A stretch of DNA of 64,000 nt from Actinomycetota bacterium (lineage in GTDB: Bacteria; Actinomycetota; JBBINU01): contig JBBINU010000005.1 of NCBI GenBank assembly GCA_037443725.1, positions 45,334 to 109,333 of the forward strand, in the 5' to 3' direction. This document shows, one piece after another, positions 18,407 through 31,251 of the stretch. The position numbers were made by a program, and so were the translations under genes. The notes beneath the pieces were generated by a model. The model did no database searches. It saw nothing but the letters and a program-made list of their open reading frames with translations, and had not been told where the DNA came from. Numbering within the stretch: the stretch's first letter is position 1; each line of letters opens with the position of its first letter.

Positions 18407-19234
18407 CTAGGCGGTGTCGCGTACCCTTCCTCCCCCCGCCGCCCGCTTCCTCCCCCCCGCCCGCGCCTCTCTCTCGGCCCTCGCCTTCTCGATGCTGGCC
18501 CTGAGGGCCTCCATGAGATCCACCACCCTCGCCCTCTCCTCCTCGGGCGGGGGCGGGGGTGGGAGCAGCCCCTTCACCTTCTGCTGGATGAGAGCTTCCA
18601 GCCTCTCCCGGTAGGTGTCCCGGAGCTCGTCAGGAAGGAAGTCCTCGGTCATGGTCTCCACCAGGCTCCTCGCCATCTGCACCTCCTGCGGCCGGACTTC
18701 CCCTGCGGCCTCGGCAGGAGCAGGCTTCAAGACCTCGTCGCTCCAGTACAAGGTCTCTAGAACGAGGGCCTCCCCAGAGACGCGGATGAGGGCCGGATGC
18801 TCCTTCTCCCTGAGGTAGACTCGGGCCAGGGCGACCCTCCCCAGGGAGACCATGGCCTCCCTCAGCAGCCGGTACGGCTTCACCCCCAGAGGCTCAGGGC
18901 TGAGGTAGTACGGTACCCGGAAGAAGACGGGGTCCACCTGGTCTTCCGGGACGAACTTGAGGATCTCCACGGTTCTGGGGTTTCCGCTGGCCCTGGCCAG
19001 CTCTTCGTCGCTGAGGACCACAAACTCGCCCCTGGCGTACTCGTAGCCCCGGACTATCTCCTCGGGGCCGAGCTCCTTTCCGCACACCTCGCAGAACTTC
19101 CTGTACCGGACGCGGCCCCTGTCCGCCTGGTGGAGCTGGTGGAAGCGGAGGGCCCTCTCCCGGACGGCGGGCTCCACCCTTACGGGTATGCTCACCAGCC
19201 CGAAAGAGATGCTCCCCTTCCAGATGGTCCCCAC
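18407..19234 (-). CDS. ku: Non-homologous end joining protein Ku
   Basis: MGTIWKGSISFGLVSIPVRV Ku core, with a proline-rich and basic C-terminal tail. Confidence 0.9.
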   Translation of the reverse strand: MGTIWKGSISFGLVSIPVRVEPAVRERALRFHQLHQADRGRVRYRKFCEVCGKELGPEEIVRGYEYARGEFVVLSDEELARASGNPRTVEILKFVPEDQVDPVFFRVPYYLSPEPLGVKPYRLLREAMVSLGRVALARVYLREKEHPALIRVSGEALVLETLYWSDEVLKPAPAEAAGEVRPQEVQMARSLVETMTEDFLPDELRDTYRERLEALIQQKVKGLLPPPPPPEEERARVVDLMEALRASIEKARAEREARAGGRKRAAGGGRVRDTA

Positions 19235-19328: not shown

Positions 19329-20516
19329 TCAGCGACCGCGGCCTTCAGAAGGGGATGCGGTGAGGAAGGATGCGATGGTGGGCGCTCCCCGGCCGAACCT
19401 CCTCTGGAGCTCATCCATGACCTGCTCCGCGCGGCGCCTCTTCTCCCTCCTTCCTTCCAGGTCGGGGAGGGACCCTGGACCAAGACGGGAGAGGGAGATA
19501 CCGAGGAGGCGGACCCGGGCCCCGACCTCGCTCCGGCGGAACAGGCTCGAGGCCAGGTCGGCTATCTCCCAGCCCAGGTCAGTGGGGGCGGGGAGGGAGA
19601 GGGACCGGGTGAAGGTCCTGAAGGTGTCCGTTCTTACCTTCAGGGTGACGGTGCTGGCGGCTAACCCCTCCTCCCTCAGACGCCTGGCCACACGCTGGGC
19701 CAGTCGGAGTATCTCTCTCCTCACCTCCTGGTCGTCGTCGAGATCCCGGGGAAAGGTCTCCTCCGCCGAGATCTGCTTGGGTGGGGGATTCGGGAGGACA
19801 GCAGAGGCATCCTCCCCCCTCGAGGCGGCCAGGAGCCACCTAGCCTGAGATGGACCGAAGAAGGGTTCCAGGGCCTCCAGACGCACGCCGGCCAGCTCCC
19901 CCAGAGTCCTTATCCCCAGGGCCTCCAGGGTTTCCCTGGTCTTCGCCCCCACCCCCGGAAGGCGGGAGACGGGGAGGGGAGCAAGGAACTCGGTGACCCT
20001 CTCCGGTTCCACCACTACGAGACCGTCCGGCTTTGCCAGACCGCTGGCCACTTTGGCCACGAGCTTGTTAGGAGCCGCCCCCACGGAACAGGAAAGCCCC
20101 CTCTCCCCCTTCACCCTCTCCCGGATCTTTCTGGCCACCTCCTCGGGGGAGCCGAAGAGGCTCCCCGCTCCAGAGACATCCAGGTAGGCCTCGTCCAGGG
20201 AAGCCATCTCCACGAGGGGGGTGAAGGACTCCAGGATCTCCCTGAGGGCAGCCGACTCCTCCTGGTAGGAGAGGAAATCGGGGGGGAGGAAGTAGGCCCA
20301 GGGGCAGAGCCTCCTCGCCCGCGCCGTCGGCATCCCGGAAACAATCCCGTAAGCCCTCGCCTCGTAAGAGGCACTCGCCACCACGCCCCTCGGGCCTGTC
20401 CCCCCCACCACCACGGGTTTCCCGCGCAGCCAGGGCCTCCTCCTCACCTCCACACTGGCAAAGAAGGCATCCATGTCCACATGGAGGATGTGGCTCCCCT
20501 TTCTCGACGCCTCCAT
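19329..20516 (-). CDS. dinB: DNA polymerase IV (Y-family) DinB
   Basis: ILHVDMDAFFASVE catalytic acidic motif is intact. SCSVGAAPNKLVAKVASGLAKPDG. Internal Met start MEASRKG. Confidence 0.85.
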   Translation of the reverse strand: MEASRKGSHILHVDMDAFFASVEVRRRPWLRGKPVVVGGTGPRGVVASASYEARAYGIVSGMPTARARRLCPWAYFLPPDFLSYQEESAALREILESFTPLVEMASLDEAYLDVSGAGSLFGSPEEVARKIRERVKGERGLSCSVGAAPNKLVAKVASGLAKPDGLVVVEPERVTEFLAPLPVSRLPGVGAKTRETLEALGIRTLGELAGVRLEALEPFFGPSQARWLLAASRGEDASAVLPNPPPKQISAEETFPRDLDDDQEVRREILRLAQRVARRLREEGLAASTVTLKVRTDTFRTFTRSLSLPAPTDLGWEIADLASSLFRRSEVGARVRLLGISLSRLGPGSLPDLEGRREKRRRAEQVMDELQRRFGRGAPTIASFLTASPSEGRGR

Positions 20517-20559
20517 GCCCGTAGACGATGGGGGTAAAGGCAGCCGGGACACGCTCCCT

Positions 20560-20588
20560 AGTTTAGGTCGAACACACGTTCGAATCAA
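20560..20588 (-). promoter_or_regulatory. SOS promoter with LexA box in the spacer: TTGATT -35 (overlapping the box by 1 nt), 17-nt spacer of LexA box TCGAACGTGTGTTCGA, TAAACT -10, upstream of dinB
   Basis: Read directly on the minus strand as TTGATTCGAACGTGTGTTCGACCTAAACT. The box matches the Gram-positive/actinobacterial LexA consensus TCGAAC-N4-GTTCGA. Confidence 0.7.
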
Positions 20589-23113: not shown

Positions 23114-26100
23114 TCAGCAGGGGTGGGCCTCCAGGCCCACCAGGCGGAAGGTGCCCTCCCCCACCACCCGCCCCGCCACCACCAAGACCCTGCTCCCGAA
23201 GATCACGTGGGCGTACCTCTCCAGAGGCCTTCCGGAAAAGGCGACGTCCACTAGGCCGTCCCCGTCGTCCAGGGTGAGGAAGGCCACTCTCCTCCCGCTT
23301 CTGGTGGGAGGGGTCTGGATCATCACCTTCACCCCCCCGACCAGCACCCTCTGGCCGGGAGGAAGTCGGTCCAGGAGAGAAGAGGGGGTGAGATCCCCCA
23401 GAGCGTTCAGGCGGGGCCGGAGAAGGTGAAGGAGGTCATAGCTGATCTCCTCCCCCAGAAGGTTCAGCTCCTCCCGAACCCTCTCCTCCGGTGAATAGGG
23501 GCGGAGGCCGAGGGGGAGAGGCCCCGGGTGCCACGATGCCTCCCCCCTCTCCAGGACCTCAGCGAGGAAGACCAGGAGATCCCGTCTGGTCCTCCCACTA
23601 CCACCGCCCCCTTCGGTGAGCCCCTCCACTTCATCGAAGGCCCCGGCCCTCACCAGAGCCTCCAGGGTGGGCCTGGAGACAGAGGACCTGGGAACCCTTG
23701 AGAGGAAATCCTCAAGCCCTCTGAAGGAACCCCTCCCCCGCTCCTCCAAGATGGCAGCTATCTCCGCCTCGGAGATCCCCCGGAGGTGGAGAAAACCTAT
23801 ACGCAGTCCCACCGCACCCCCGGGCAGCCTCTCCGCCGTGTACTCCCTGGAGCTTGCGTTTATGTCCAGGGGCAGGACGGGTATCCCTGCCCTCCTCGCC
23901 TCGGCCAGGACCACCCGCCTCGGATACATCCCGGGCTCGTACGTGAGGACACCGGCGTAGAAGGCGGCCGGGTGGTGCGCCTTCATCCAGGCGGACTGGT
24001 AAGCGGGAAGGGCAAAGGCCACGGCATGGGCCTTGCAGAAGCCAAAGGCGGCAAAGGCCGAGAGGGACTCCCAGACTTCCTCCACCACTTTCTCCTCGTA
24101 CCCTTCCTCCTCGCCCGCCCGGAAGAACCACCGCCTGAGTTCCTCCCTCTCCTCCTCCCTCTCGAGCCTCCTCCTTATCCTGTCCGCCTCCGCCAGGGAG
24201 ACCCCGGCCACTGCGGAGATGAGCTTCATAGCCTGCTCCTGGAAGACGAGGACCCCGTAACTCTCGGCCAGGATGGACCGGAGGAGAGGGTGCGGGTACC
24301 GGACAGGCTCCTCACCCCACCGCCTCCTCAAGTAAGGCCGGACCATGTCAGCCCTGACAGGTCCGGGTCGGAAGAGGGAGATCTCCACGGCCAGCTCCTG
24401 GAGGTTCCCCGGCTTGAGCCGGGTCACCAGGTTCCTCTGCCCCGGGCTTTCCAGCTGGAAGCAGCCGACGGTCTTACCGGAGCGCAGGAGAGCGTAGGTG
24501 GCAGGGTCTCCATCCCCGAGACAGCCGAGATCCACCCTCTCCCCGCTCACCCTCTCCGCCTGGGAGACGGCGTGCCTGAGAGCCGAGAGCATCCTCACCC
24601 CAATCACGTCCAGCTTGAGGAAACCGAGGGCCTCGGTATCGTCCTTGTCGGCCTGGAGGGCAGGAATCCCTGCGGCGGTCAGGGTGAGGGGGGCGCGGAG
24701 GCAGGGATCTCCTCCACTAAGGGCGATGCCGCTGGGGTGCATGGCCACCTGCCTGGGAACTCCATCCAGGCGCTCCACCAGCCGGAAAAGGAGGTCCCAG
24801 GAAGAGGACCTGAGATTCGCCCGCCTCACCTCGGGCAGACTCATCACCACTTCTCCCAGAGCCCGGGGGGAGACATTCGGAAGGGACTCGGCCACCCTCG
24901 CCAGCTCCTCCCGGGGAAGCCCCAGGGCCTTGCCGGCCTCCCTAACCGCTCCCCTCACCCTGAAGGTCTCGAACACGGCCACAGCGGCCACTCTCCCGGG
25001 GTGGAGCTGGAGGATCCTCCTATACACCTCCTCCCTCCGGTCGGACTCCACGTCCAGATCGATATCGGGTGGGTCGGGACGAAGGGGGTTGAGAAAGCGC
25101 TCGAAGAGGAGACCGGAAGGGAGCGGATCCACCTCAGAGATACCCAAGAGGTAGCAGACGAGACTGCCCACCGCTGAACCGCGGCAGGCCACCCTGATCC
25201 CCATGGCCCTGGCCTCCCTGGCCACCTCGGCCACGGTGAGGAAATACCCAGCGTATCCCAGGGAGAGGATGACCTCGAGCTCCCTGGAGGCCCGCGCCTC
25301 GTACCTCCCCACTCCAGCAAGCCCCTTCCCCTCCAGACCCCTCCTCACCTCTGTCACCAGCCTTTCCTCCGCCCCCTCCACCTCCGGGTAGTACTTGGAC
25401 CCAAGGGGAGGCCCTCCCTCCAGCTCCTCCGCGAGCCCCGCAGCGTTACGGAGGAGGTCAGGCTCCTCCCGGAAGAGCTCCTCCATCTCCTCGAGGGGCT
25501 TGAGATACCCCTCGGCATTCCGCCTCTCCCCCAGCTTCACCGGACCCTGCTTTCCCATGGCCACCAGGAGGTCGTGAAGGGGAGCGTCGCCGGGGAGGAG
25601 GTAATGCACGGGGTTTGTGGCGACCGCCCGAACCCCAAGCCGACGGGCCAGATCCAGGAGGCCTCTCACCACCTTCCTCCCCTCCCCCTCCATGAGGTCC
25701 GAAACCTCCAAGAAGAAGCTCCCGCGTCCGAAGGCCTCCAGGTAGGCGCCGGCTGCCTCGAGGGCCCTTCTCTCCTCGTCCCTTCTTAGAAGAGCTCCGA
25801 CGTCGCTCCAGACCCCGGCGAGAAGGACCAACCCCTCGGTCTCCCTGGCCAGCTCCTCCCGGGAGATCCCCACCCTCTCCTCGGGCTCACTGGCCCGGAA
25901 GGCCTCCCCAGGGTAGACCGAGGGAACCCGTGCCCTCCCCGAAAGGTGGATCCGGGTGAGGAGCCGAGAGAGGGAGACGTATCCCCGCTCATCGCGGGCG
26001 AGGAGGAGGACCCGCCTCGCACCACCCCGGCAAGTTCTCGGCCTCGACCACCTCCTCCCCAGGGGGCCCTCCAGGCTCACCTCAGCACCAAAGATGGGCC

Positions 26101-26287
26101 TCACCCCATGCTCCACGCAGGCCCTGGCGAACCGCACCGCACCGAAGAGGGCATCGGTGTCGGTCAACGCCAGTGCGGTGTACCCCATCTCCCTGGCCCT
26201 GGCTGCCAGATCCTCGGGTCTTGCGGCCCCCTCGAACAGGCTCCAGACCGTATGCACATGAAGGTGAGTGAAGGGGAGACCCTTCAT
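23114..26287 (-). CDS. dnaE2: Error-prone DNA polymerase DnaE2 (ImuC)
   Basis: PHP domain LHVHTVWSLFEGAARPEDL, Pol III alpha core. ~1057 aa with no tau-binding tail, under a LexA box. Start at MKGLPFTHLHVH after RBS GGGAGGGGGAA. Confidence 0.85.
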   Translation of the reverse strand: MKGLPFTHLHVHTVWSLFEGAARPEDLAARAREMGYTALALTDTDALFGAVRFARACVEHGVRPIFGAEVSLEGPLGRRWSRPRTCRGGARRVLLLARDERGYVSLSRLLTRIHLSGRARVPSVYPGEAFRASEPEERVGISREELARETEGLVLLAGVWSDVGALLRRDEERRALEAAGAYLEAFGRGSFFLEVSDLMEGEGRKVVRGLLDLARRLGVRAVATNPVHYLLPGDAPLHDLLVAMGKQGPVKLGERRNAEGYLKPLEEMEELFREEPDLLRNAAGLAEELEGGPPLGSKYYPEVEGAEERLVTEVRRGLEGKGLAGVGRYEARASRELEVILSLGYAGYFLTVAEVAREARAMGIRVACRGSAVGSLVCYLLGISEVDPLPSGLLFERFLNPLRPDPPDIDLDVESDRREEVYRRILQLHPGRVAAVAVFETFRVRGAVREAGKALGLPREELARVAESLPNVSPRALGEVVMSLPEVRRANLRSSSWDLLFRLVERLDGVPRQVAMHPSGIALSGGDPCLRAPLTLTAAGIPALQADKDDTEALGFLKLDVIGVRMLSALRHAVSQAERVSGERVDLGCLGDGDPATYALLRSGKTVGCFQLESPGQRNLVTRLKPGNLQELAVEISLFRPGPVRADMVRPYLRRRWGEEPVRYPHPLLRSILAESYGVLVFQEQAMKLISAVAGVSLAEADRIRRRLEREEEREELRRWFFRAGEEEGYEEKVVEEVWESLSAFAAFGFCKAHAVAFALPAYQSAWMKAHHPAAFYAGVLTYEPGMYPRRVVLAEARRAGIPVLPLDINASSREYTAERLPGGAVGLRIGFLHLRGISEAEIAAILEERGRGSFRGLEDFLSRVPRSSVSRPTLEALVRAGAFDEVEGLTEGGGGSGRTRRDLLVFLAEVLERGEASWHPGPLPLGLRPYSPEERVREELNLLGEEISYDLLHLLRPRLNALGDLTPSSLLDRLPPGQRVLVGGVKVMIQTPPTRSGRRVAFLTLDDGDGLVDVAFSGRPLERYAHVIFGSRVLVVAGRVVGEGTFRLVGLEAHPC

Positions 26288-26388
26288 TTCCCCCTCCCGA
26301 GCCCTCCTCCCTGAGCCCTTCCGCACCTGGAGGCCACCTTAGGAGCCGTTCCCCGGTAGCCGGCAGGTCCGGGCGGAGGCCAGACGGC

Positions 26389-26673
26389 TCAATCGAACAG
26401 GCTCTTAAGGAACCACCCTCCACCCCTCAGGTCCCGGACCAGCTCGTACACCCCCTCCCCCTGAGGGCCCGTCGCCTCCACCCTCCAGTACTCCACCTCC
26501 CACTCCTCCCCCCAGAACCCCTCCTCGGTGTAGGGGTCCCACCCGGCCTCCCGCCACCGGGCCACCACCCTCTTCACCCTGTACCTCTTCCCGTGCCAGA
26601 GGAATTCCCGGGGACCCTCCGGCCCCGCCCTTACCGGGACTCTGCTCCGGTACCGCCGTCCTATCGAACACAC
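26389..26673 (-). CDS. Small hypothetical protein (Trp/Glu-rich) between the LexA-box promoter and dnaE2
   Basis: ORF ...GKRYRVKRVVARWREAGWDPYTEEGFWGEEWEVEYWRVEATGPQGEGVYELVRDL. Its GTG lies at the predicted transcription start inside the LexA box, or an internal GTG after GGGAAGAGG starts it. Family not recognised. Confidence 0.35.
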   Translation of the reverse strand: MCSIGRRYRSRVPVRAGPEGPREFLWHGKRYRVKRVVARWREAGWDPYTEEGFWGEEWEVEYWRVEATGPQGEGVYELVRDLRGGGWFLKSLFD

Positions 26674-26708
26674 GTTCGAATATTAGATCCCAATCCGATG
26701 CCTGTCAA
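26664..26708 (-). promoter_or_regulatory. SOS promoter: TTGACA -35, 17-nt spacer, TAATAT -10, immediately followed by LexA box TCGAACGTGTGTTCGA
   Basis: Minus strand reads TTTGACAGGCATCGGATTGGGATCTAATATTCGAACGTGTGTTCGATAGG. The 16-mer is identical to the one upstream of dinB. Confidence 0.7.
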
Positions 26709-26836
26709 AGCCCACCTACCCTCAACACCTCCCCCCAGCGCTCAAGAGGCAAGGACGCGTAAAGCGAGCCGACGGATGCGGAAAGCGAGCCCCAGAAGGA
26801 GATGCAAAACCCCGAACCTGGCGTTAACCTCACACC

Positions 26837-27256
26837 GTGGCCGTGAAGACCGACTGCCGGCATTACAGGGCCCGGCCAGCCGGGCCCCTTGACCAGGTCC
26901 AGGAGTGCACTCTAGGAAAGGCCGAGCTCCTCCCCTTCGCCTGCCCACCAGAGTGCGCCCACTACCAGCCGCGTCCTCCCGGACACCCGTCCCTCTTCTC
27001 CCGCTCCACCGTGCTCCCTCTCCGAAGGTCCCCCATGCCTCGACTCCGCAGATTCCCGAGACACCTCAGCTCCCGGGCAACCCGGAGCTGGGCCCGCCTG
27101 CTCAGAACCGGCCCACCAGCGGCATTCCTCGCCTATGCTCTGGGCATCGCGGTTGCCTGGGTCCTCGCTCGACAGCTGGCTCCGGCGGCCGAGCTCCCGA
27201 TCGCTCTGGCCAGCGTGGCAGCTGCCGAGTATTTCCTGTATGCGCGGTGGAGGTGA
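26837..27256 (+). CDS. Hypothetical small Cys-rich membrane protein
   Basis: GTG start. N-terminal CRHY...C...CPPECAHY cysteine cluster, C-terminal TM helix. Stop overlaps the start of the downstream gene (GTGA). Confidence 0.35.
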   Translation: MAVKTDCRHYRARPAGPLDQVQECTLGKAELLPFACPPECAHYQPRPPGHPSLFSRSTVLPLRRSPMPRLRRFPRHLSSRATRSWARLLRTGPPAAFLAYALGIAVAWVLARQLAPAAELPIALASVAAAEYFLYARWR

Positions 27257-28254
27257 GTCCCCGACCCGGACCTCGAACTCCCCCTCCGGGCTCAGGGTGC
27301 CCCCGGCGAGGAGCCGTCCTCTGCTTTAGCCTCCTCCTGGTCCTCACGGGCTGTTCGCCCAAGGCGCTTCTCGCGGCAACCGCCACCCCGACCCCGGCAG
27401 CGGTCGCTCCCTCCCCCACACCCAGTCCTTCTCCCGTCCCTCCGGTGAGTCCCTCGCCCGCGCCACCCCCGGAGGAAGGGGTGCTCATCGCAGGGGACAT
27501 AGGCGCCGGAGACGAGGGCGAGATGGAAGTAGCCCGAGCCATGGCCAAATGGGCGGAGAGCCGCCGGGTGCTTGCCCTCCTCCTGCTAGGGGACAACATC
27601 TACCCTGACGGTAACCCCGCCCGCTTTGCGGCGGCCATAGCCAGGCCCCTCCGGCCCTTGCTCGCCGCGGGGGTTCGCATTTATCCCGTCCTCGGGAACC
27701 ATGACGTCCTCTACGACGGCGGAGCCGGCGAACTCGGCCTCTTCGGCCTGGCCAGAAGCTATTACTCCTTCGAGATAGGCTCGGTGACCTACTTCGCCCT
27801 GGACTCCACGGCCTTCGGGCAGGAGCAGGCGGCCTGGCTCCGAAAGGCCCTGGCGGAGGCGGAGACCCCCTGGAAGGCGGTTTATCTGCACCATCCCCTT
27901 TACTCGTCCGGCCTTCACGGCCCTGACCTTGCCCTGAGGGCGGCCCTAGTTCCCCTGCTGAAGGAGGGAGGGGTCCAGCTCGTCCTCTCCGGGCACGACC
28001 ACGACTACGAGAGGACCCAGGCCATCGACGGAGTCGTCTATGTGGTTTCCGGCGGTGGGAGCTCGGTGCGACCGGTAGGCCGTTCGGCCTTCACGGCCGT
28101 CTCCGCCTCAAGACTCCACTTCCTATGGCTTCGGGCGGACCCTTACCGGCTCCAGGTGGAGGCCATCGGAACCGACGGGAAGCCCTTCGACGCCTTCGTG
28201 CTGGTAAAGGAGGGGTCGCGGGCCGAGCCAAGCCATCTGGTCCGCGCCGAATGA
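27253..28254 (+). CDS. Metallophosphoesterase (calcineurin-like / purple-acid-phosphatase-like) lipoprotein
   Basis: Lipobox [36 protein letters not shown] metal-ligand motifs. Start assigned to GTG 27253. Confidence 0.7.
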
Positions 28255-28276: not shown

Positions 28277-28927
28277 TCACCCGAGAGGAGGGAGGCCAGC
28301 CAGGAGAGCCCTGACCGCCTCAGCCGGGTCGCGGGCCTCGGCCACGGCCCTCACCACAGCCACCCTCCGCGCGCCCGCCGCAACCACCTCACCGAGGTTC
28401 CCCGGGTCTATCCCCCCGATGGCGAACCAAGGCACCGCCGCCCGGCAGGCCGCATACCGGACGTACTCTAGGCCGGCGGCAGGCCTCCCCGGCTTCGTCG
28501 GCGTCTCCCAGACCGGCCCGCAGGCCACGTAATCGACGGGCTCTTCCGCCGCCCTGGCAAGGTCCTCGGGGGCGTGGGTGGACCTCCCCACGAGGAAGTC
28601 TTCTCCCAGGATCCTCCTAGCCCAGGCCGGCGGGAGGTCCTCCTGGCCGAGGTGCACCCCGTCGGCCCCCGCAGCGAGGGCGAGGTCGGCCCTGTCGTTC
28701 AGGATGAAAAGGGCCCCATGCTCCGCCGCCTCCTCCCGGAAGACCTCGGCCATCTCCAGCACCTCCAAGGCGGAAGCCTCTTTCTCCCTGAGCTGCACCA
28801 CGTCGACCCCGGCTCCCAGGATGGAGTGAAGAAACTCCTTGAGGTCCCCCTTCTCCCGCCGGCCGCCTGTAACCACGTAAAGCCGGGAGCGGGATAGCCT
28901 CTCCCTCCTCCACTCCCCCGACCTCAA
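28277..28927 (-). CDS. thiE: Thiamine-phosphate synthase ThiE
   Basis: LYVVTG...VQLREK...[12 protein letters not shown]...AIGGI. Confidence 0.85.
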
Positions 28928-29128
28928 CTAGCCCCCCGCCACCGGTCTGACTATCTCGAGCCTGTCCCCCTCCTCCAGGATGACCCGGGAGAAGTCCTCC
29001 CTGGCCACAGGCTCCCCGTTCCTTTCCACCGCTACCCACCGGCCCCGAAGTCCCATGGAAATGAGGAACCCCTCGAGGGTTGTCCCCTCCTCAACCTCGT
29101 AGGCTTCGCCGTTGGCGAGGACCTTCAT
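28928..29128 (-). CDS. thiS: Sulfur carrier protein ThiS
   Basis: 66 aa ubiquitin-like protein ending in GG. Confidence 0.8.
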   Translation of the reverse strand: MKVLANGEAYEVEEGTTLEGFLISMGLRGRWVAVERNGEPVAREDFSRVILEEGDRLEIVRPVAGG

Positions 29129-30357
29129 CCTCTCCCGGAAAGGCCCTGAAGAGCTTTGGAAGGGCCTGGCCCGCCCGCGCCCTCCAGCGCCCGGCCAGCC
29201 CCGTTCCCTGAAGGGTCCACCCCGCCCCGCTCCAAAGGAACCCAGTCCTTCCAGACCGGGTCCAGCCCTTCCCTCGCCAGCGCCCGCGCCACCTCGTCGG
29301 CGCTCCTGGTGTCCGCGATGGCGAACTGCTCCTCCGCTTCATCGGGGTGGAGGTAGCCTCCCGGCTCGGTTCGCGAGCCCGCGCTCATCTGGGTCACAGC
29401 CACAAGCGCCAGGCCGTCCCTAAGCTCCGGCCTCTCCCTGGTGGAGAGAACGAGCCCGACATCGGGGAGGAAGATCCGGAGGGCCGCGTGGGCCTGGACG
29501 AACTCGGCGTCCTCCACCGGGTACCTGGGCCCGGGGAACCCGGCCGCGGGCCGGAGGCGGGGCAGGGAGAGGGTGACCTCCGCCCGCCAGTGCCTCTTCA
29601 GAAGGAACCGAGCGTGGGCGGCGAGGGCAAGAACCTCAACCCGCCAGTCCGGGGTTAGCCCAAGGAGAACTCCCAGGCCCACCCGGCGCATCCCGGCCCT
29701 GGTGGCCCGCTCCGGCGCACCCAGCCTCCAGAAGTAGTTCCTCTTGCTCCCCTTCAGGTGATAGGACGCGTAGGCCTCGCGGTCGTAGGTCTCCTGGTAG
29801 ACGACGACGCCGTCGGTCCCGGCCGCAGCCAGCCTTCGATACACCTCCTCCGGCCATGTCTGGGTCTCGATGGAGACGTTGGCGAAGCCGAGGGCGTGAA
29901 CCCTAGCCACCACTTCTTCGAGATAGTCGGGGTTCACCCAGTGGGGCTGCTCCCCGGAGACCAGCAGGATGTGCCTGAACCCCCGCTCGTAAAGGGCTCT
30001 CGCCTCGGCCTCCACCTCCTCGGGGGCGAGGGTCTTTCGGACGATCCCGCGGTTCCAAGCTGAGAAGCCGCAGTACGTGCAGACGCTGGCGCAGTGGTTG
30101 GAAAGGTAGAGGGGGGCGAAGAGCCTCATGGTCCTCCCGAACCTTCTCTCCCTCACCCTGGCAGCCACTTCTGCAAGCTCACCGAGAAGCCGACCGGCCG
30201 CGGGTGAGAGAAGGACCGCGAGGTCGTAAAGGTCGAAAGAGGGCCGAGAAAGAGCCCTCCTCACTCCCTCGGGACCTTCCTTCTCCGCCTGGCGAGCGAG
30301 GCCAACGAGATCCAGGGAGGCGAGGTACTCCTCGAAGGTGTCAGGCAGGGAGGGCAT
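29125..30357 (-). CDS. thiH: 2-iminoacetate synthase ThiH (radical SAM)
   Basis: CASVCTYCGF radical-SAM cluster motif. ThiH/BioB-like fold. Confidence 0.8.
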   Translation of the reverse strand: MPSLPDTFEEYLASLDLVGLARQAEKEGPEGVRRALSRPSFDLYDLAVLLSPAAGRLLGELAEVAARVRERRFGRTMRLFAPLYLSNHCASVCTYCGFSAWNRGIVRKTLAPEEVEAEARALYERGFRHILLVSGEQPHWVNPDYLEEVVARVHALGFANVSIETQTWPEEVYRRLAAAGTDGVVVYQETYDREAYASYHLKGSKRNYFWRLGAPERATRAGMRRVGLGVLLGLTPDWRVEVLALAAHARFLLKRHWRAEVTLSLPRLRPAAGFPGPRYPVEDAEFVQAHAALRIFLPDVGLVLSTRERPELRDGLALVAVTQMSAGSRTEPGGYLHPDEAEEQFAIADTRSADEVARALAREGLDPVWKDWVPLERGGVDPSGNGAGRALEGAGGPGPSKALQGLSGRG

Positions 30358-30363
30358 CCGGAC

Positions 30364-31164
30364 TCACCTCGCAGCCCCGAGCCGCTCCAGGAAACCGTGG
30401 AGAGGGCTGGAGGCTTCTGCCACCTCCTTCTTGGGCGCGAGGCCGGCCAGGTAGGCTGCCCTTCCCGCCTCCACGGCCAGCTTGAAGGCCCGCGCCATCT
30501 CCACAGGATCCCTGGCCACCGCGATGGCCGTGTTCACCAGGACAGCGTCCACCCCCATCTCCATTGCCTCCGCGGCATGGGATGGGGCCCCTATGCCGGC
30601 GTCCACCACCACCGGAACGGTCGCCTGCTCAACTATGACCCTTATCCCGTCCCTGGTGCGGAGCCCCTGGGCCGACCCGATCCAGGAACCCAGGGGCATG
30701 ACAGTGGCGCACCCCACCTCCTCCAGCCTCTTGGCCAGCACCGGGTCGGCCCCTATGTAGGGGAGGACGACGAAACCCTCGGCCACCAACCGCTCGGCCG
30801 CTCTCAGGGTCTCCACCGGATCCGGCAGCAGATATCTGGGTTCCGGGGTCACCTCGAGCTTCACCCAATTGGGCAGGCCCATGGCCCTGGCGAGCCTGGC
30901 TATACGCACCGCCTCCTCGGCGTCCATCGCCCCGGAGGTGTTGGGTAGGACGAGGTACCTCTCGGGATCGATGTACTCAAGGATGTCCGGGCCGGCGGTG
31001 GGGTGGAGATCGACCCGGCGGACCGCCACCGTCACCATCTCCGTGCCCGATGCCTCGAGGGCGTCCTGCATCACCTGGTGAGAGGAGAACTTCCCCGTGC
31101 CCAAAATCAGCCGCGACCGAAAGCTTCTCCCTGCTATGACGAGGGGGTCGTCCCTAGCTCCCAT
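30364..31164 (-). CDS. thiG: Thiazole synthase ThiG
   Basis: [34 protein letters not shown] 31164 follows GGTGAGG. Confidence 0.85.
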
Positions 31165-31251
31165 CCTCACCACCCGCTTCCTCGGCCATTATAGGCGCCC
31201 TACGGTTAACCCACGGGCCAGGGGAGTCCGGGGCCGGAGGAGACCCGGGAC

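Follow-up and report, generated by a model that had tools for sequence, protein, structure and literature searches.

The window analysed here is the whole 64,000-nt (64-kb) stretch of contig JBBINU010000005.1 from an Actinomycetota bacterium, and the locus of interest lies on its minus strand, where a small gene, designated imuB-C, precedes the gene for a DnaE2-type polymerase. The promoter, recognized by a promoter scan and in the sequence, combines a -35 hexamer TTGACA (26703..26708) and a -10 hexamer TAATAT (26680..26685) across a spacer of 17 nt, and scores 10 of 12 matches where shuffles of the 1-kb region give an expectation of 0.0. Directly after the -10 hexamer comes the 16-mer TCGAACGTGTGTTCGA (TCGAAC-GTGT-GTTCGA; 26664..26679), a predicted LexA operator of the actinobacterial/Gram-positive type that spans both the predicted transcription start and the start codon of imuB-C. 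This GTG (26673-26671), whose G is the 7th base past the -10 hexamer, opens a frame of 94 codons ending at 26389 (imuB-C, 26389..26673), and the in-frame stop TAA that bounds the frame upstream is itself part of TAATAT. The original prediction had described this same succession of promoter, box and 94-codon ORF, which is indeed found on the minus strand, but it placed dnaE2 only 60 nt further on. The intergenic spacer (26288..26388, minus strand) measures 101 nt when counted to ATG 26287, which is preceded by the Shine-Dalgarno sequence GGGAGGGGG, gives the N-terminus MKGLPFTHLHVHT and is most likely the dnaE2 start; a distance of 62 nt corresponds to an upstream GTG at 26326. The spacer contains no terminator-like site and no significant structure (fold z-score -1.1); the lack of a terminator makes co-transcription of the two genes likely. 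As had been predicted, the downstream gene (23114..26287, minus strand) appears from its Pfam and NCBIfam matches to encode a C-family polymerase of the error-prone type, 1057 aa in length.

The 16-mer TCGAACGTGTGTTCGA is present in exactly two copies in the 64-kb window, at 26679-26664 and 20583-20568; the number of matches is still two when three mismatches are allowed (0.11 expected), and the looser pattern CGAAC-N4-GTTCG adds one extra site, with one mismatch. The second copy, identical to the first as anticipated, lies at 20568..20583, within the dinB promoter's spacer (TTGATT, 20588-20583; 17 nt; TAAACT, 20565-20560), and both perfect copies thus sit within promoters of translesion polymerase genes. 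No lexA gene was found in the window. Judged by their sequence, the TCGAAC-N4-GTTCGA copies would be Gram-positive/actinobacterial SOS operators bound by LexA. The dinB gene (19329..20552, minus strand; start at GTG 20552 or ATG 20516), assigned to the Y-family by Pfam and NCBIfam, retains intact catalytic motifs DMD and SLDEAYLD and is located 6 kb from the imuB-C/dnaE2 operator. The C-terminal tail of the DinB protein can be aligned to RecA residues 7-26, although the alignment comprises only 20 residues and its score was reached by 24 of 5000 shuffles. Directly downstream of dinB is a Ku gene (18407..19234, minus strand; Pfam Ku, E 9e-46), which probably belongs to the same LexA-controlled unit. 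The window holds no ImuA, ImuB, second DnaE or second Y-family gene, in agreement with the predicted absence of imuA and imuB from the neighbourhood, and phmmer searches with the Agrobacterium ImuA and ImuB proteins detected no canonical partners either in the window or in the 80 nearest DnaE2 loci. The active DinB is the likely Y-family partner, supplied in trans. Rfam yielded no match in the window, and the GlnE encoded there is of the actinobacterial type.

The 94-aa protein matches the Pfam family DUF6504 (PF20114) with 36.6 bits, above the gathering score of 24.2 bits, its residues 9-91 covering profile positions 15-100 of 103. A single-protein word-index homologue search retrieved nothing beyond a same-species entry of 59 aa; an exhaustive phmmer search identified 71 relatives, nearly all of them free-standing proteins of 83-150 aa, and a family HMM built without the query scores the protein at 87.9 bits. 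A profile search with the family returned 1,714 hits, the best 120 of which are all standalone PF20114 proteins; among these 120, the entries with a name are Actinomycetes proteins annotated as "DUF6504 family protein". Altogether, there are about 1,700 free-standing relatives, mostly actinobacterial. On this comparative evidence we regard the 94-codon ORF as a real gene belonging to a known family, contrary to the original prediction, which assigned it to no family.

The relationship of this family to ImuB was explored with hhalign against an alignment of intact 503-aa ImuB proteins from Rhizobiaceae, 88 in number, each represented by its C-terminal 110 aa. The imuB-C family matches the ImuB C-terminus with 95.4% probability and an E-value of 1.9e-8, over 80 columns that run to the extreme C-terminus. 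The match to the single pTi ImuB is weak (E 0.03), which is explained by a 39-aa deletion within the domain of the pTi copy. Pfam marks no DUF6504 on the Rhizobiaceae ImuB proteins used, and no relevant PDB entry was retrieved by sequence searches with the imuB-C protein, with its family profile or with an ImuB. The AF2 model of the 94-aa protein is all-beta (pLDDT 86.2, pTM 0.76; residues 10-40 at pLDDT 96-98), and such a structure, along with the conserved C-terminal tryptophan and conserved basic residues that are also present, is among the traits of the ImuB-C superfamily (criteria in PMC3765255). Given the DUF6504 match and the alignment to the ImuB C-terminal domain, the protein can be described as a standalone ImuB-C. 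The small ORF had been thought to encode an unrecognised accessory factor of the mutasome or to be simply a leader. An accessory factor is the best reading, while "unrecognised" does not hold for a DUF6504 protein that aligns to ImuB-C and whose kind has been published, and a mere leader is not supported.

Related loci were collected with the polymerase as query, reference genomes supplying the closest 80 DnaE2 loci. The small ORF is kept upstream of dnaE2 in relatives, an outcome that upholds the original prediction on this point. DUF6504 is linked to the polymerase in 15 of the 80, from Dehalococcoidales, Chloroflexota, Ktedonobacterales and 12 Rubrobacter loci. A DUF6504 gene lies directly upstream of a DnaE-type polymerase gene in L003, L086 and L089 (Actinomadura), and in L088 (Vallicoccus), L090 (Mycobacteriales) and L091 it is part of the polymerase cluster, with a HEPN_SAV_6107 gene in between; the present locus, unlike the latter three, has no HEPN_SAV_6107 or methyltransferase gene between its parts. 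L005 likewise has an ImuB-C gene beside its translesion polymerase gene. TCGAAC-N4-GTTCGA half-sites were found upstream of the homologue in five of the six actinobacterial-type loci (L003, L086, L089, L090 and L091). In L012, L017, L028, L074 and L078, ORFs upstream of DnaE2 that had been considered as "ImuB" were rejected as unrelated or lacking a Pfam family match.

Standalone ImuB-C proteins accompanying DnaE2 in genomes without ImuA or ImuB have been described before (PMC3765255, PMC6511836, PMC8072749, PMC12926913), and computational descriptions published in 2013, 2019 and 2026 present ImuB-C as the part that probably binds DnaE2 in mutasomes lacking ImuA and ImuB. In the classification of the Venclovas laboratory (NAR 2026, PMC12926913), DnaE2B groups have either ImuB-C only or ImuB-C together with an active PolY and RecA. 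We place the present polymerase in the DnaE2B group by pairwise similarity, not by the tree of PMC12926913. Like the DnaE2B-[ImuB-C](-PolY-RecA) systems of Arthrobacter alpinus and Tessaracoccus lapidicaptus, the locus pairs a standalone ImuB-C with a DnaE2 from outside the ImuA/ImuB clade; it shares with the PolY-RecA version an active Y-family polymerase that has a RecA-NT-like motif, and its setting (LexA box type, GlnE type, nearest ImuB-C proteins from Actinomycetes) also looks actinobacterial. It differs from these systems in that the Y-family gene is outside the operon, at a distance of 6 kb and with an identical operator of its own, and in the position of the imuB-C start codon within the operator. 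The SOS-induced Deinococcus operon lexA-imuY-imuB-C-dnaE2 (PMC8072749) has the same order of imuB-C and dnaE2, the LexA/RecA control that is predicted here, an ImuB-C of about 80-95 aa and no ImuA, likewise absent from the present window, but includes lexA and an inactive Y-family gene, imuY, whereas the present operon consists of two genes and has a catalytically intact Y-family polymerase in its vicinity. In common with the canonical imuA-imuB-dnaE2 cassette, a LexA-regulated error-prone C-family polymerase occurs with a module homologous to the ImuB C-terminal domain, and the split arrangement with separate operators is reminiscent of imuA'-imuB and dnaE2 in Mycobacterium; in contrast to that cassette, there is no ImuA/ImuA' and no catalytically dead ImuB in the window, ImuB-C is a separate 94-aa protein, and the polymerase shares just 30% identity with Agrobacterium ImuC. 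A standalone ImuB-C in a LexA-controlled translesion-polymerase operon is also known from Geobacter sulfurreducens, as lexA-imuB-C(GSU0042)-polY (cited in PMC6511836 and PMC3765255).

On the basis of these data, we consider it highly probable that imuB-C and dnaE2 form a LexA-repressed two-gene operon encoding an ImuA/ImuB-less form of the DnaE2 mutasome. In undamaged cells, LexA bound to the 16-bp operator, which adjoins the -10 hexamer and overlies the predicted transcription start, would block RNA polymerase; upon DNA damage, RecA-stimulated self-cleavage of LexA would free the promoter, and the transcript would probably begin at, or within 2-3 nt of, GTG 26673. imuB-C would then be translated without a leader or Shine-Dalgarno sequence, and dnaE2, 101 nt downstream, from its own strong one. 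The all-beta product, as a free-standing ImuB C-terminal domain, is predicted to be the DnaE2-binding module. The Y-family and RecA-binding roles of canonical ImuB would probably be taken by the active DinB acting in trans, with RecA presumably in place of ImuA.

The partner of the small protein could, alternatively, be DinB and not DnaE2, as ImuB-C genes adjoin those of DinB and Ku elsewhere (PMC3765255); DinB, alone or together with Ku, would then be its main partner, and the protein would serve as an SOS adaptor of general function or as a sensor of damage, one that merely happens to share the dnaE2 operon. In other bacteria, standalone ImuB-C is most often found beside dinB, sometimes with Ku and ligase (PMC3765255), ImuB-C is listed as a putative PolY-binding subunit (PMC12926913), and in L047 and L014 the ImuB-C gene precedes a Y-family gene instead of the polymerase; dinB and Ku are here controlled by an identical operator. 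Nevertheless, we judge this alternative rather unlikely, considering that at the present locus and in L003, L086 and L088-L091 imuB-C lies upstream in the polymerase cluster and not beside a Y-family gene, and that in published AlphaFold models, which derive from ImuB complexes, the largest ImuB-C interface is with the PHP domain of DnaE2 (PMC12926913).

The two-gene mutasome operon being our preferred reading, the question arises as to where translation of its first gene begins. In the GenBank annotation of a near-identical MAG contig, imuB-C is called as a 59-aa product, and a product of only 59-62 aa could start at an internal GTG at codon 33, 36 or 37, with everything from the box through codon 32 left untranslated as a leader. 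The Shine-Dalgarno-like GGGAAGAGG noted originally ahead of an internal start is indeed present, at a distance of 6 nt from the codon-33 GTG. Furthermore, most neighbouring genes have clear Shine-Dalgarno sequences, indicating that leaderless initiation is not the default here, and the homologue loci examined are all leadered. The protein evidence is difficult to reconcile with a truncated product, which we hold to be improbable. On their own, residues 1-32 reach 27.2 bits (E 2e-10) with the family HMM built without the query; the near-invariant family positions V14, P21, F24 and W26 all fall within these residues, as do three strands modelled by AF2 at pLDDT 96-98. A 59-aa protein would miss half of the beta sheet. 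The N-termini of the relatives (M-S/T-R-R-Y) line up with residues 4-6, and family homology needs codons 5-32. No start codon other than GTG 26673 exists before codon 33, and no Shine-Dalgarno sequence precedes that GTG. As the sole available start lies seven bases past the -10 hexamer, the mRNA is probably leaderless, with a predicted transcription start at or near the GTG, and the 59-aa call is, by this comparison, truncated, the full 94-aa form being the real one. Leaderless translation in mycobacteria requires no more than a GTG at the mRNA's 5' end (PMC4633059). Taken as a whole, the proposal that transcription start, translation start and LexA operator coincide on a leaderless mRNA, such that the right half of the operator itself forms the first codons, GTG TGT TCG A.., is one we advance tentatively, at a little short of even confidence. 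This coincidence is absent from all homologue loci examined.

The polymerase encoded by the second gene has 1057-1070 aa and comprises, according to Pfam, the PHP, Pol3 alpha, finger, HhH and OB (1004-1055) domains. It scores 671 bits against the NCBIfam DnaE1 model (cut-off 1002), with a match that stops at position 1046 of 1146, and 652 bits against the error-prone model (cut-off 939), of which it covers 5-1016 of 1047; with both scores below their cut-offs, it is, on these profile scores, a member of a divergent lineage. Its best relatives in reference genomes reach at most 41-42% identity; the DUF6504-linked polymerase of Actinomadura is 42% identical (706 bits), a Streptomyces polymerase whose gene is linked to that of an inactive Y-family protein scores 607 bits, and the proteobacterial ImuC of Agrobacterium 398 bits, with 30% identity. 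The marginally higher DnaE1 score, and the GenBank label "DNA polymerase III subunit alpha" on DUF6504-linked homologues, might suggest a replicative DnaE1 with the small protein as a replisome accessory, a possibility that we regard as very remote: the DnaE1-model match ends where it does and the protein itself just past the OB fold, so that there is no tau-binding C-terminal domain, LexA repression of a replicative polymerase through an operator in common with dinB is implausible, and the nearest relatives adjoin Y-family or ImuB-C genes.

That imuB-C is no gene, and that its frame arose by chance in GC-rich sequence and serves only as the 5' leader of dnaE2, is effectively refuted by the Pfam match above the gathering score, the 71 relatives from the exhaustive search, the confident AF2 fold and the hhalign match to ImuB-C. 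It is also contradicted by the 1,714 hits of the profile search, the synteny with the polymerase across phyla and a third-position GC of 86% (64/53/86% by codon position, similar to 70/48/82% in dnaE2). Long ORFs are so abundant here (14 kb of this 67% GC DNA hold 78 that reach 60 aa or more, and one of 88 codons overlaps imuB-C in another frame) that ORF size alone is no evidence and it is the family match that counts.

A system of this type having been described between 2013 and 2026, the locus raises no new question; it does provide a clean, minimal example of a probable ImuA/ImuB-less DnaE2 operon, with two genes, one operator and a likely Y-family partner elsewhere under the same operator. 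The lineage it comes from appears to be GC-rich and sparsely sampled, and its probable actinobacterial affinity is read from the GlnE model type, the box type and the nearest homologues. For annotation, the link between ImuB-C and the DnaE2 operon corrects both the 59-aa truncation and the bare "DUF6504" name used by Pfam and NCBI. A 94-aa, confidently folding and possibly thermostable ImuB-C encoded beside its polymerase would also be suited to binding and structural studies. If the leaderless reading is true, the Y-family half of a "split ImuB" would come from another locus, one with an identical operator and with Ku besides. The LexA-controlled dinB gene has a possible leaderless GTG of its own, 8 nt past the -10 hexamer, and the two starts together would suggest leaderless SOS transcripts as the source of the mutagenic polymerases in this lineage.

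In DNA with the 67% GC content of the window, an open reading frame of 94 codons carries little weight. The translation of the small minus-strand frame ahead of the polymerase gene dnaE2 (imuB-C, 26673-26389), which the original prediction had placed in no recognised family, nevertheless scores 36.6 bits against Pfam DUF6504 (PF20114) over residues 9-91, well past the gathering score of 24.2. Searched exhaustively with phmmer, 1.84 billion representatives yielded 71 relatives, almost all free-standing and 83-150 amino acids long. At E <= 1e-5, a profile built from 41 of them retrieved 1,714 proteins, the best 120 of which are all standalone PF20114 proteins and, where the source is named, are each a 'DUF6504 family protein' from Actinomycetes. 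Residues V14, P21, F24, W26, V33, W40, W45, R64, A67 and W87 are near-invariant in the alignment, and GC contents at the three codon positions (64/53/86% in imuB-C, 70/48/82% in dnaE2) display the same periodicity. The frame is a real gene of a known family.

DUF6504 was not mentioned in the literature that we searched. Members of the 'ImuB-C' superfamily defined by Aravind and colleagues (PMC3765255) have an all-beta structure in which basic residues and a tryptophan near the C-terminus are conserved, and they include small free-standing proteins from SOS operons that also encode DinB, DnaE2, UmuC or Ku. As an ImuB reference we used the canonical imuA-imuB-dnaE2 cassette of an Agrobacterium Ti plasmid and gathered intact 503-aa Rhizobiaceae ImuB proteins, the C-terminal 110 residues of which were compared with the DUF6504 alignment using hhalign. 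The two align with a probability of 95.4% (E 1.9e-8) over 80 columns, to the last residue, and have in common the motifs P..(F/V).WRG(R/K)..V, EWW, a WRVE/YFVIE strand and a terminal W.(L/F)...(F/V)(D/A). This homology and the shared motifs show that the window protein is a standalone ImuB-C protein. In substance, the earlier idea of an unrecognised mutasome accessory factor holds, except that the family is known (DUF6504/ImuB-C). The ImuB of Agrobacterium plasmid pTi_CFBP2177 (L084, 2604-3998), at 464 aa, is possibly a defective copy, because the 39 residues by which it falls short of the 503-aa Rhizobiaceae proteins are missing within the ImuB-C domain. In twelve Rubrobacter loci (L011, L018, L029, L030, L032, L034, L040, L046, L048, L056, L058, L062) the homologues lie directly upstream of DnaE2 and carry a conserved N-terminal extension of ~60 aa (SVSEIHxYPLRPEGFEEPLFPT..SRRxVAEHLLxAPWLxRASE) that has no Pfam match and might be what is left of a reduced ImuB, or else an arm for binding a partner.

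The promoter of imuB-C, on the minus strand, consists of a -35 TTGACA (26708-26703) and, after a 17-nt spacer, a -10 TAATAT (26685-26680); it has 10/12 matches in the promoter scan, with none expected in shuffles of the region, and is directly followed by the palindromic 16-mer TCGAAC-GTGT-GTTCGA (26679-26664), a predicted LexA operator. The 64-kb window contains exactly two copies of this 16-mer, the other one being at 20583-20568; no further copies exist there at <=3 mismatches (0.11 expected), and a looser search for CGAAC-N4-GTTCG adds just one, imperfect, site. The promoter, the 16-mer, the opening GTG (26673) inside the operator and an internal GTG of the same frame, preceded by GGGAAGAGG, are all as originally described. 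The G of the opening GTG is the seventh base past the -10 hexamer, and the TAA within TAATAT provides the nearest in-frame stop upstream. Upstream, ~770 nt (26709-27480) separate the promoter from the called start (27481) of a divergent metallophosphoesterase gene, for which a longer frame from 26905 would give 192 extra N-terminal residues without a domain match.

On a 99.9%-identical MAG contig, imuB-C is publicly annotated with only 59 aa, starting MVARW. This call is almost certainly too short, because homologues start M-(S/T)-R-R-Y at query residues 4-6, residues 1-32 alone match a family HMM from which the query was left out (27.2 bits, E 2e-10), the structure model is predicted best at residues 10-40 (pLDDT 96-98), and four near-invariant positions fall in that stretch. 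With no further ATG, GTG or TTG in frame ahead of codon 33, the N-terminal residues can be delivered solely from the GTG within the operator. Since this codon has no Shine-Dalgarno sequence and its spacing from the -10 hexamer is canonical, the transcript probably lacks a leader or carries one of <=2-3 nt. In mycobacteria, having ATG or GTG as the 5' end of the mRNA is both required and sufficient for leaderless translation (PMC4633059). Shine-Dalgarno sequences are present at most genes neighbouring imuB-C, and the homologue loci inspected are all leadered, with such sequences.

The most likely start of dnaE2 is ATG 26287, with the Shine-Dalgarno sequence GGGAGGGGG upstream, which sets the gap after the imuB-C stop at 101 nt rather than the 60 nt originally given; the spacer contains no terminator and no significant structure. 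Pfam recognises PHP, Pol III alpha, finger, HhH and OB domains in the polymerase, the chain of which ends directly after the OB fold. It scores about equally on, and under the cut-offs of, the NCBIfam DnaE1 model (671 bits, the match stopping 100 positions short of the model end) and the error-prone model (652 bits, almost end to end). In pairwise comparisons it is closest to a DUF6504-linked Actinomadura polymerase (42% identity, 706 bits); the values are 37-43% and 597-655 bits for other DUF6504-linked polymerases of Actinomycetes, 39% and 607 bits for a Streptomyces plasmid polymerase, and 30% and 398 bits for Agrobacterium ImuC. This pattern of pairwise similarity would fit the 'DnaE2B' group, which is found in genomes without ImuA or ImuB (PMC12926913). 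On the Streptomyces sp. MMBL 11-1 plasmid (L085, 7390-9218), a truncated Y-family gene (337 aa, IMS domain partial) and lexA come after the DnaE2-type polymerase gene, and the locus resembles a mobile version of those cassettes in which DnaE2 is paired with an inactive Y-family polymerase.

The check set by the original prediction was conservation of the small frame upstream of dnaE2 in relatives, and the arrangement is indeed kept. Among the six closer DUF6504 loci with sufficient flanking DNA (L003, L086, L088-L091), a DnaE-type polymerase lies downstream in all six and directly adjoins in three. In the other arrangement, seen in 3/6 loci and in 3/4 of those from Actinomycetes, a small HEPN_SAV_6107 (PF18726) gene intervenes (L088, 6359-6910; L090, 6289-6705; L091, 6307-6768), unlike in the window; in L088 and L090, genes for a methyltransferase and a Y-family polymerase lie beyond the DnaE-type gene. 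TCGAAC-N4-GTTCGA precedes the homologue in L003, L086, L089, L090 and L091, and is not found within 180 nt upstream in L088. Among the 80 DnaE2 loci nearest to the window's, drawn from 185,579 reference genomes, a DUF6504 frame lies directly upstream on the same strand in 15: Dehalococcoidales L005, whose promoter spacer holds an AGCAC-N4-GTTCT element, Chloroflexota L004 and Ktedonobacterales L006, both with a Y-family gene ahead of that frame, and twelve Rubrobacter loci. Two Calditrichota loci have the order ImuB-C, Y-family, DnaE2, with DnaE2 directly adjacent in L047 and ~2.4 kb further on in L014. In ~25 of the 80 a Y-family gene directly adjoins DnaE2 without ImuB-C, and ImuA or canonical ImuB appears in none. 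The synteny and the operators kept in relatives therefore establish the box, imuB-C and dnaE2 as a conserved unit, and the frame is not a lineage-specific accident.

The second 16-mer (20583-20568, minus strand) lies inside the spacer of a TTGATT-17-TAAACT promoter (20588-20583, 20565-20560) upstream of a Y-family gene that scores as DNA polymerase IV. Because the catalytic DMD and SLDEAYLD motifs are retained, the product is a DinB rather than an ImuB. The tail at its C-terminus, KRRRAEQVMDELQRRFGRGA, can be aligned to E. coli RecA (residues 7-26) at a score reached by only 24/5,000 shuffles. This matches the 'RecA-NT-like motif' that Timinskas and Venclovas reported for the Y-family proteins working with ImuA-less systems (PMC6511836). 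A leaderless SOS transcript may likewise be the template for DinB translation, as an in-frame GTG (20552) lies 8 nt past the -10 hexamer and no Shine-Dalgarno sequence precedes the conventional ATG (20516). A Ku gene (18407-19234, minus strand), 94 nt downstream of dinB, is probably under LexA control together with it. The MAG contig (L001, 17335-19485), in other respects 99.9% identical, lacks 20 nt of Ku (18445-18426), and there the deletion fuses Ku in frame with a downstream S8 subtilase into a 716-aa gene call. The 64-kb window holds no recA, lexA, imuA, imuB, second dnaE or second Y-family gene, which bears out the reported absence of imuA/imuB near dnaE2.

We propose that LexA covers the imuB-C transcription start and blocks it, and that damage would release a leaderless bicistronic imuB-C/dnaE2 mRNA. 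ImuB-C would then dock onto the PHP domain of DnaE2, by analogy with the AlphaFold models of PMC12926913, with clamp- and RecA-binding functions supplied in trans by DinB and RecA. In Deinococcus, the operon lexA-imuY-imuB-C-dnaE2 is induced in a LexA- and RecA-dependent manner, and UV mutagenesis requires ImuY and DnaE2 (PMC8072749); in mycobacteria, binding of DnaE2 and ImuA' requires the C-terminal region of ImuB, according to work cited in PMC6511836. The main functional rival, in which DinB or Ku rather than DnaE2 would be the partner of ImuB-C, seems improbable, as the gene order in the window and in relatives speaks against it. Each element of the imuB-C/dnaE2 locus has a precedent: standalone ImuB-C beside DnaE2 in 2013 and 2019, and SOS control of such cassettes in Deinococcus and Geobacter. 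Distinctive here are the minimal operon of two genes, the Y-family partner split off with Ku under an identical operator, the start codon within the operator, which would imply a leaderless transcript, and a public gene model almost certainly mis-annotated at 59 aa.

Although the 64-kb window carries a thiG-thiH-thiS-thiE thiamine cluster (28277-31173, minus strand), neither a TPP riboswitch nor any other Rfam family attains its gathering score in it. The source is probably a deep-branching, GC-rich lineage of actinobacteria, to judge from three features: GlnE in the window matches the actinobacterial-type model at 857 bits, the operator is likewise of actinobacterial type, and the closest imuB-C relatives, among the matches listed, come from Actinomycetes.
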